64,000 nt of DNA from a virus (lineage: Duplodnaviria; Caudoviricetes): the IMG/VR virus record IMGVR_UViG_2902759955_000002, positions 1-64,000 of that record; one strand, written 5' to 3'. Below the pieces are notes generated by a model. The model was not told the origin of the DNA and ran no database searches. It worked only from the letters and a program-made list of their open reading frames with translations. Shown here in pieces: positions 35,646-37,216 of this stretch. Positions within the stretch are counted from its first letter, which is position 1. The number at the start of each line of letters is the position of its first letter. The translations under genes were made by a program, and so were the position numbers.

Positions 35646-35894
35646 TTAGGCGAGTGCCGGGAATTCCTGCTTCACGCGATCGATCGCAGCCTGCACCGTC
35701 GTGATCTTTTCTGCTTCTTCGTCCGCGATTTCGAAACCAAACTCATCCTCGACAGACATGACGAGTTCAACCAGATCGAGCGAGTCCGCACCGAGGTCGT
35801 TCACGAAGTCGGCCTCGGGTTTGACGTCCGCCTCGCGCACGCCGAGTTGTTCGCACACGAGGCCGACGATGCGTTCATTGATGGTCTTTTCCAT
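35646..35894 (-). CDS. acpP: Acyl carrier protein (copy 1, AcpP-like)
   Basis: [14 protein letters not shown]...[18 protein letters not shown]; phosphopantetheine Ser intact. Confidence 0.95.
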
Positions 35895-35910
35895 TTTCTT
35901 CTTTTCTCTT

Positions 35911-36408
35911 TTAAAAGGGAGTGACGGCTTGACTAGCCAGAGGACGACCTGATTCAAAGTCGATGCTGACAATCAGATCGAAGACACTCGGATCCCACGG
36001 GTCGGGATAATGACCATGGTTTTCCACGCCCAACGCCTTGATGAGCTCAGGGATATAGCCATGGTGCCAACAGACAAGCACCGTCTTGTTGACAAAGTGT
36101 TTATGCGTGAGCAGACGCTCACCCAGTTCCTTCGCCATCGAGTCCGGAAACGAGATGTCGAGTGGAACGCCCTTGCCCCAGTACAAGCGATCTTGCTGCA
36201 TGAGCGGCGTGACTGTTTGCATGGGGCGCACGCTGCGCTTCGTGGGTGACGAGGCGTAGACGTAATCCGGGATCCCGTAGGTGTTCGGGATGTAGGTCGC
36301 GAGCAGGTCTGCCCGACGGTGACCGGCTTCAGACAGCCCCGTCTCGTGTTTGTTGTCAGGCTTCTCGGCGTGGCGCATCACGAGAATCTGCTTAGGGGAG
36401 TGCGACAT
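35911..36408 (-). CDS. Histidine phosphatase superfamily protein (SixA/PGM-like), copy 1
   Basis: MRHAEK, LS..G..RA, SVRPMQT, LVCWHH. Confidence 0.88.
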
Positions 36409-36658
36409 CTCTATCTCTGGCTGGAGTAATTACCGATTCAACGAACTTCACCACTTCGCCCACGGTCTTGAGCTTCTGGCTAATCTTGGCCGGGATCTCG
36501 ATGTTGAAGTCATCCTCGATCTCGAGGAGCATCCCGATCGTGTCGAGAGAATCCGCACCGAGGTCTTCCTCGAGGCGGTCACTGGCGTCCGGTATCGTCC
36601 CGATCATCCCCAGGTTCGTGGCGATGATGGCTTTGACCTTCTCCTCGATGCTGCGCAT
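36392..36658 (-). CDS. Acyl carrier protein (copy 2, divergent)
   Basis: [25 protein letters not shown]...LKTVGEVV; GAGG RBS. Confidence 0.92.
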   Translation of the reverse strand: MRSIEEKVKAIIATNLGMIGTIPDASDRLEEDLGADSLDTIGMLLEIEDDFNIEIPAKISQKLKTVGEVVKFVESVITPARDRDVALP

Positions 36659-36673
36659 GGCGGACCTCGTGGG

Positions 36674-37216
36674 TTAGAACATCATGGTGAATTTCGAGAC
36701 GACGGGTTGGCTCTTCTGGAAATTGATCACGTAGACCGAACCGTAATCGTTCTCCGGCCAGATTTCGGGATAGCTGCCCTCGGCCAGACCCAGAGCCTTG
36801 AAGAAAGCGGGTAGCTCTGCACGGGTCCAGCAGACGTAGACATTGATACCCGGATGACGGTGCTCGTAGCGCAGTTCATGGCCGAGGCGGAAAAGCGCGT
36901 TCTGATGAAAGGCGCCCGCATCGAGCATGGGGCAGTCGCGTTCCATCTGGTTGTGCAGTGGCTTGACGGTCTGGCCAGTGATGATGCTGATGTCCTTGGT
37001 GTCGCCGTAAAAGGCGGGCACGTAGATGTAGTCGGGCTTCCCGAAGTTGCGTGGCATCCAATCCTGGATATAGCGCGCACGGTCGTGACCGGTCTTGGAG
37101 AGCGCCGTGCCTGACTCATGCAACTCGGCGTGGCGAAACACCACGATGCGATCGGGCAGGTAGATATGACTGCGCGTCACATCGATCTCTACAGCAATAT
37201 CTTCGACGGTGCTCAT
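36674..37216 (-). CDS. Histidine phosphatase-like protein, copy 2 (possibly catalytically degenerate)
   Basis: FRHAE, LSKTGHDRA, FGKPDYIY, QTVKPL, VCWTR in place of VCWHH. Confidence 0.8.
   Translation of the reverse strand: MSTVEDIAVEIDVTRSHIYLPDRIVVFRHAELHESGTALSKTGHDRARYIQDWMPRNFGKPDYIYVPAFYGDTKDISIITGQTVKPLHNQMERDCPMLDAGAFHQNALFRLGHELRYEHRHPGINVYVCWTRAELPAFFKALGLAEGSYPEIWPENDYGSVYVINFQKSQPVVSKFTMMF

Follow-up and report, generated by a model that had tools for sequence, protein, structure and literature searches.

The DNA analysed here is a 64,000-nucleotide (nt) window, positions 1 to 64,000 of the IMG/VR virus record IMGVR_UViG_2902759955_000002, in which positions 35646-37216 encode two small proteins of the histidine-phosphatase fold (HP) and two acyl carrier proteins (ACP) in the alternating gene order HP2-ACP2-HP1-ACP1. 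An earlier annotation made from the letters alone, referred to below as the sequence-only reading, had described four co-oriented and tightly packed genes, and the corresponding open reading frames (ORFs) were all found on the minus strand: HP2 at 36674-37216 (180 amino acids, counted from a predicted ATG at 37216), ACP2 at 36392-36658 (88 amino acids), HP1 at 35911-36408 (165 amino acids) and ACP1 at 35646-35894 (82 amino acids). Spacers of 15 nt and 16 nt separate HP2 from ACP2 and HP1 from ACP1, respectively, and the start of HP1 overlaps the end of ACP2 by 17 nt. The HP-ACP pairing is a real, clade-restricted variation on the phage ACP auxiliary gene, as the comparison with related phages described below shows.

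The content of G and C at third codon positions (GC3) was 0.70-0.75 for all four genes, like that of the neighbouring phage tubulin gene phuZ (0.75), indicating that they have long been resident in the phage. No sigma-70-like promoter site was found in a scan of the locus, and a terminator scan gave one terminator-like match, on the plus strand inside HP1, which is under the shuffle expectation. When the locus proteins were compared with the defence and anti-defence models of PADLOC, 0 of 4 matched.

The carrier proteins and the phosphatases

Judged by the NCBIfam acyl_carrier equivalog cut-off, ACP1 and ACP2 are both AcpP-type acyl carrier proteins. ACP1 matched PF00550 (E = 1.1e-15, 58.0 bits, cut-off 20.8), NF002149 (113.9 bits, cut-off 106) and TIGR00517 (97.4 bits, cut-off 70.45), and ACP2 matched PF00550 (E = 4.2e-10, 40.2 bits, cut-off 20.8) and, with 72.3 bits, TIGR00517, barely over the 70.45 cut-off. 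In an alignment of 30 sequences including both proteins, D37, S38, L39 and D40 were invariant, and the motif LGADSLD was found in ACP1 and ACP2, so that the phosphopantetheine serine is kept in both, as had been read from the sequence. The description of ACP1 as canonical and acidic likewise agrees with its scores above the equivalog cut-offs and with its isoelectric point (pI) of 4.05 (ACP2: 4.37). ACP1 shares 64% identity with the AcpP of the host and 65-75% with its housekeeping counterparts in beta- and gamma-proteobacteria, and it retains DSLD.VELVM..EDEF in helix II and the acidic stretch DEEAEK. We rejected a recent capture of the host acpP gene, with which nucleotide identity was only 74.7% over 174 nt, the GC3 of ACP1 being phage-like.

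ACP2 is the fast-evolving member, with 33% identity to ACP1 (E = 1e-10) and 26-37% identity to every other ACP compared, and its end branch in the ACP tree measured 8.22 vs a median of 0.038 (about 200x). The predicted divergence of helix II was borne out by the alignment, in which ACP2 bears DSLDTIGMLLEIEDDF against a different ACP1 stretch; in addition, Gly stands at the Glu41 position and AKISQK replaces the acidic DEEAEK. The acidic residues of helices II and III of AcpP are recognised by AcpS and the enzymes of fatty-acid synthesis (FAS). Having lost Glu41 and the helix-III acidic patch, ACP2 has therefore probably been retargeted to another partner.

Both proteins matched phrog_5934 (E = 3.3e-22 for ACP1 and 1.1e-13 for ACP2), a group that holds the ACPs of Ralstonia phage RSL1 (ORF083), Burkholderia phage BCSR5 and Prochlorococcus phages P-HM1 and P-HM2, which are likewise small and acidic, carry the DSL serine and come from large phages without FAS enzymes. 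An ACP homologue was found in 45 of 50,697 phage records, and phage ACPs are called rare, with no function offered, in an excerpt of PMC7760394. Around three annotated jumbo-phage ACPs the neighbours were mostly hypothetical proteins together with a tRNA splicing ligase and a DNA topoisomerase, with no phosphatase annotation. What distinguishes the present ACP from these other phage ACPs is its constant place behind phuZ and a structured RNA, its phosphatase partner and its presence in two copies.

HP1 was modelled by AlphaFold2 (AF2) with a mean predicted local distance difference test (pLDDT) score of 93.3. Foldseek gave 190 PDB matches at E<=0.001, of which the top-ranked among the matches listed were histidine-phosphatase proteins or domains, including SixA, the MutT1 phosphatase domain, PGAM5 and phosphoserine phosphatase, and the match probability was 1.0 for the Rv2985/MutT1 phosphatase domain and for SixA structures 2rfl, 4hbz and 1ujb. 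At the level of sequence, HP1 scored 18.6 bits against PF00300, under the 21.7-bit cut-off, and HP2 had no Pfam match, so that membership of the HP family rests on fold and motifs; some bacterial relatives do bear a precomputed PF00300 match. Sequence matches of HP1 to putative SixA structures were marginal (E = 0.048-0.42, with 0.048 to 2rfl), and no NCBIfam model matched. Family alignments (14 and 50 sequences) show R12-H13-A14-E15, R32, S59, R61 and H115-H116 in HP1, and all of these, together with W114, are among the invariants of the family; the full RHA..R..H set attributed to HP1 is thus present as R12, H13, R61, H115 and H116.

Model and motifs together point to a minimal SixA-like histidine phosphatase with an open active site. 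Like HP1, SixA (Escherichia coli, PDB 1ujb; putative members 2rfl and 4hbz) has about 160 amino acids, a minimal fold without cap insertions and the RH..R..H residues, whereas the HP family is set apart by invariant motifs of its own, RHAEKP, VCWHHG and PDPW. The best Foldseek match of HP1 was the C-terminal phosphatase domain of mycobacterial MutT1/Rv2985 (E = 2.5e-07, TM-score by query length 0.67), which in that protein is joined to a Nudix domain and has nucleotides as substrates, while HP1 stands alone.

HP2 and HP1 share 31% identity (E = 2e-21), and the AF2 model of HP2 (pLDDT 88.1) has the same order of strands and helices, the first ~20 residues being predicted as disordered; no match was found in Pfam, PHROG, NCBIfam or PADLOC. 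The sequence-only reading had aligned HP2 with HP1 and noted that HP2 lacks the second His and an Arg. The family alignments agree with this, since HP2 has I in place of R61 and T-R in place of H115-H116; moreover, it is without K-P after RHAE and bears a 4-residue insert. With two of the four canonical catalytic residues lost, HP2 is best read as a pseudoenzyme and not as an active member.

The relatives of HP1 are bacterial proteins of ~157 amino acids (47 matches, the best 45-48% identical), which the sources label SixA-like or PhoE-like and which come from soil Alphaproteobacteria, Burkholderiaceae, Verrucomicrobiota, Acidobacteriota and others. The locus thereby exposes a widespread, uncharacterised bacterial family of ~157-aa histidine phosphatases.

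HP-ACP pairing behind phuZ and its history

The window is part of contig C11 (286,074 bp), one of the 129 contigs of a 7.68-Mb assembly that C11 shares with a bacterial isolate, and the content of G and C of C11 is 58.3% vs 62.9% for the assembly. Its last 125 bases are a copy of the first 125, and the overlap of the ends indicates a closed jumbo-phage genome. A chimallin-type nuclear shell protein is encoded at 21261-23204 (phrog_4795, E = 5.6e-92) and PhuZ at 37776-38792 on the minus strand (phrog_4733, E = 8.9e-85; PF00091 and PF22334, weak), and the window also codes for split beta subunits of a multisubunit RNA polymerase (phrog_3015 and phrog_2987) and a DNA polymerase. Chimallin, PhuZ and the split polymerase together indicate a nucleus-forming phage of the Chimalliviridae type, in agreement with the sequence-only reading. 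The nearest named relatives at the DNA level were Burkholderia phage FLC9 and Ralstonia phage RSF1, with similarity spanning phuZ only, and PhuZ was found in 0 of 399 other genomes of the host's family.

The phuZ gene is the upstream anchor of the locus, in synteny with 7 clade relatives. A search by PhuZ alignment yielded 58 IMG/VR loci and a metagenome scan yielded 3 loci. In all six IMG/VR loci with at least 51% PhuZ identity an ACP lies 650-1100 nt behind phuZ, and in three of these (L005/L093, L006/L140 and L007/L091) an HP stands directly before it; locus L163, from the metagenome scan, is a further single HP-ACP pair. After exclusion of L161 (metagenome scan), which ends at the end of phuZ, ACP was found behind phuZ in 7 of 7 scorable clade relatives and HP directly upstream of ACP in 4 of 7. 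Four IMG/VR contigs code for an HP, three of them being jumbo-phage contigs ordered phuZ, gap, HP, ACP. In every chimallivirus with an HP (5/5) this gene is located 12-16 nt upstream of ACP or overlaps it, and never elsewhere. Neither HP nor ACP was found within 5 kb at any of the 52 remoter PhuZ loci. The adjacency search that had been suggested along with the sequence-only reading thus gave a divided answer: co-location does recur in related phages, but it is confined to this clade and does not extend to the bacterial HP loci discussed below. No second instance of the doubled HP-ACP module was found in IMG/VR, in the metagenome scan or in the 399 host-family genomes. The pairing of a phage ACP with a histidine phosphatase was not described in the literature searched, and the remark that no phage system of this architecture had been described therefore holds for that literature.

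Two relatives show features of their own. The ACP of L140 (7158-7484) has LGGDSLD rather than LGADSLD and a C-terminal extension of ~30 residues, and in L093, L140 and L163 the ACP is followed by an array of 5-8 tRNA genes; the window is without tRNAs. Among public phage genomes an HP homologue was present in 1 record only (L001, ON170174.1 46249-54686), a bacterial-looking stretch without ACP. The record carries the flag UNVERIFIED_ORG, the stretch resembles bacterial chromosomal sequence, and immediately downstream of its HP comes an ORF with a RelA_SpoT domain. A link of HP to guanosine tetraphosphate (ppGpp) or to toxic small alarmone synthetases (toxSAS) was considered and rejected as a one-off, since homologues of that ORF were absent from 80 bacterial loci, from the 58 PhuZ loci and from the phage contig.

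Between phuZ and HP2, and ending just before the HP2 start, lies a minus-strand stretch of ~560 nt (37217-37775) whose nucleotide sequence was conserved in 7 of 7 aligned phages of the clade, whether or not these carry an HP. For its 92 predicted pairs, 91.1% of the cells were paired vs 79.6% in shuffles, and 41 pairs had changed on both sides vs 22.6 in shuffles (0 of 500 shuffles reached this value; slid controls gave 7-15), the structure having been derived from the same alignment in which covariation was counted. An invariant G-U pair is consistent with the gene-sense strand. At E<=1 there was no Rfam match to this stretch or to the one downstream of ACP1 (34884-35645), and no tRNA was detected in 37217-37775. 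Covariation strongly supports a structure of several helices, and the stretch is probably a new structured RNA or a long leader. ACP invariably comes after this RNA, whether or not an HP is present, so that the conserved unit consists of phuZ, RNA, an optional HP and ACP.

In a maximum-likelihood tree of 27 HPs, HP2 grouped with three single-copy phage HPs (support 100/98) on a long stem, its end branch being 1.97 vs a median of 0.66, and HP1 was sister to this group (88/94); a quick tree of 77 rows agreed. Forcing HP1 and HP2 to be sisters cost 21.4 log-likelihood units (approximately unbiased (AU) test, p = 0.0033), a p-value that is somewhat optimistic because the HP1+HP2 group was named after the quick tree had been seen. 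HP2 and the single-copy phage HPs have in common the derived motifs WP[DE]ND[YF] and C-terminal VSKF.M.F; HP1 retains the bacterial-type PWDPSVF and C-terminal ..PF. A recent tandem duplication was rejected by the nesting of HP2 among the single-copy phage HPs, and the two pairs are therefore anciently diverged. As to the claim that a functional unit was kept twice, both pairs are indeed present, but neither HP is the closest relative of the other.

Two histories would account for this arrangement: either an ancient duplication with losses elsewhere, or insertion of an inner ACP2-HP1 segment between an HP2-type HP and an ACP1-type ACP. One deletion of that inner segment would yield exactly the single-pair layout. 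All phage HPs fall on one side of the 88/94 branch, and judging from the tree the five adjacencies may go back to one ancestral event and not to selection acting repeatedly.

Proposed function of the pair and the alternatives

The sequence-only reading had noted that the window contains no ketosynthase or phosphopantetheinyl transferase (PPTase), and we found this to be true of the whole 286-kb phage contig, which has no match to PF01648 (PPTase), PF00109 (ketosynthase), PF08541 (FabH) or PF04336 (AcpH); where there were any matches, all lay on host contigs. The host codes for two PF01648 genes and a normal fab cluster, and PF04336, the AcpH-type ACP phosphodiesterase, had no match anywhere in the assembly, in which the host is 99.97% complete. 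Homologues in the host were found for 33 phage ORFs; from these, 14 distinct genes plus a RecJ and a thioredoxin gene were scanned, and no ACP-dependent enzyme was among them (their roles concern nucleotides, DNA, NAD, lysis and the like).

The sequence-only reading had proposed that the pair could reroute host acyl flux, serve as a decoy or let the phosphatase act on an ACP-linked substrate. We tentatively favour, at somewhat less than an even chance, the reading in which HP is an accessory phosphatase in the same pathway as ACP. The locus would then be an accessory operon carried by one sub-clade of the jumbo phages that form a nucleus, placed behind phuZ and a structured RNA leader, with the AcpP-type ACP as its core. 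As the phage is without a PPTase, the host AcpS would have to load the phage ACP and convert it to the holo form, and throughout the long infection holo-ACP would work within the type II fatty-acid and lipid machinery of the host. Some members of the clade would have gained a SixA-like HP by insertion directly upstream of ACP, co-expressed with it. This HP would dephosphorylate a substrate in the lipid or carrier-protein sphere, either a phospho-lipid intermediate or a compound left over when the prosthetic group is turned over, for which HP need not make a stable complex with ACP. HP1-ACP1 would be the conservative and presumably working pair, and HP2-ACP2 the fast-evolving one, in which HP2 most likely would only bind.

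Weak leads towards lipid phosphates come from the bacterial family. The sole recurrent neighbour of bacterial HP genes was a protein similar to phospholipase D (PLD), seen in 7 of 119 flanking ORFs (other families occurred <=2 times), and a few loci have DUF2278 and patatin-like genes close to HP; the N-terminus of some members bears two membrane helices, and one structural neighbour in the Atlas is fused to a PAP2 lipid phosphatase (TM 0.85). No fused HP forms were found at E<=1e-5 among proteins of 290-2000 amino acids, which is weak evidence.

Several observations weigh against the accessory-phosphatase reading. The PLD link spans about a tenth of the bacterial loci, several of them from related genomes, and the PAP2 lead is taken from a language-model and structure listing without alignment. 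An ACP homologue within about 4 kb was found at 0 of 80 bacterial HP loci (L009-L088), 3 of the 7 scored relatives (L089, L090 and L092), those with the most similar PhuZ (64-66%), have ACP but no HP, and another viral contig, L008, codes for an HP without ACP; the bacterial loci and the three relatives also weaken the idea of a functional unit. The phage HPs (pI 6.1-8.8 vs a bacterial median of 5.65) are barely less acidic and so give no clear ACP-docking signature. A single acquisition can explain all phage HPs, which makes their repeated adjacency to ACP weaker evidence for coupling, and a tandem duplication copies neighbours whatever their function; the ACP tree, poorly resolved and with the extreme ACP2 branch, does not discriminate between the histories of the two pairs. 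SixA acts on the phosphohistidine proteins NPr and Ndk according to excerpts of PMC7948535, PMC6282199 and PMC12934123, in which the substrates named are phosphohistidine proteins and not lipids.

Many of the same observations would be expected if HP and ACP served host takeover in functionally unrelated ways and had in common a slot behind the leader RNA that is highly expressed and tolerates insertions, with HP acting on a host phosphohistidine protein (NPr of the nitrogen phosphotransferase system PTS-Ntr, Ndk or a phosphorelay) and ACP acting separately. The relatives with ACP and no HP, the HPs without ACP in L008 and at 80 of 80 bacterial loci, and the nearest solved folds of HP1, which are minimal histidine phosphatases of the SixA type and the protein-phosphatase type, all suit this explanation, as does the fact that one insertion could account for all phage HPs. 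It fits less well with the position of HP at 12-16 nt from ACP or overlapping it in all five chimalliviruses that have one, and with the two pairs having stayed intact in the phage through a long divergence, and we regard it as possible though doubtful. The same tight spacing can also be read more strongly, as a sign that HP acts on ACP or its prosthetic-group cycle and sets the apo/holo ratio, with HP2 as a dead ACP2-binding subunit; HP would free the ACP serine of 4'-phosphopantetheine or of a phosphate, or hydrolyse 3',5'-ADP, coenzyme A or 4'-phosphopantetheine. The strict HP-then-ACP order at translational-coupling distances, the alternation HP-ACP-HP-ACP and the fold of HP2, kept after catalytic loss as in binding pseudoenzymes, are in line with this, and an AcpH-type hydrolase is coded by neither phage nor host. 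The prosthetic group of ACP is the target of AcpH (HD family) and PptH (metallophosphoesterase), and a phosphoesterase beside an ACP invites comparison with them, but HP1 has the histidine-phosphatase fold and not that of an HD or binuclear metallophosphoesterase. Histidine phosphatases are phosphomonoesterases, however, and the link in holo-ACP is a phosphodiester; the bacterial members never adjoin an ACP at the 80 loci, and charge complementarity between HP and ACP gave no signal. Direct action on ACP is thus unlikely in our view, even though two known classes of phosphopantetheinyl hydrolase are described, and said to have arisen convergently, in an excerpt of PMC8557913.

Still less probable is that the phage ACPs are inhibitors or decoys, an excess of apo or non-cognate ACP blocking the host glycerol-phosphate acyltransferase or titrating ACP-binding regulators and thus stopping host growth or defence. 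The phage has no PPTase, ACP2 has diverged strongly at partner-contact positions with its fold motif kept, and apo-ACP was reportedly found to be toxic in E. coli by Keating, Carey and Cronan in 1995; but the 65-75% identity of ACP1 to housekeeping AcpPs is a constraint that suits a working carrier better, and the two host PPTases should modify ACP1. We would give similarly little credence to the most far-reaching proposal, in which HP founds a third, histidine-phosphatase-based class of enzymes acting on carrier proteins or acyl/lipid phosphates and forms with the phage ACP a self-contained lipid-remodelling module, switched on via the ~560-nt RNA, with a dead HP2 and a retargeted ACP2 as a regulatory sub-pair.

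Phage ACPs are annotated in many large phages, and none is known to have a demonstrated role. The fixed address, the recurrent enzymatic partner and the natural pair of an active and a dead partner provide a handle on their function, and the locus may reveal whether phages of the nucleus-forming kind interfere with the lipid or carrier-protein metabolism of their hosts.

Flanking sequence and other genes of the window

Downstream of ACP1, ~760 nt hold no convincing gene, and an alignment with L089, L090, L091 and L092 showed conserved blocks in this minus-strand non-coding stretch (34884-35645). The blocks shared with these four loci include one containing CAGGATC, which is also present in the upstream RNA. 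Short, near-identical fragments of the phage were detected in one plant metagenome run; they do not cover the HP and ACP genes. A gene for a RecJ-like exonuclease (DHH, DHHA1 and RecJ_OB domains) at 39828-41606 on the minus strand is 73% identical in protein sequence to a host gene and sits in the 2-kb bin of the window with the highest content of G and C (62%); it seems to have been captured comparatively recently from a bacterium similar to the host. The thioredoxin gene at 28166-28492, also on the minus strand, is 67% identical to a host gene.

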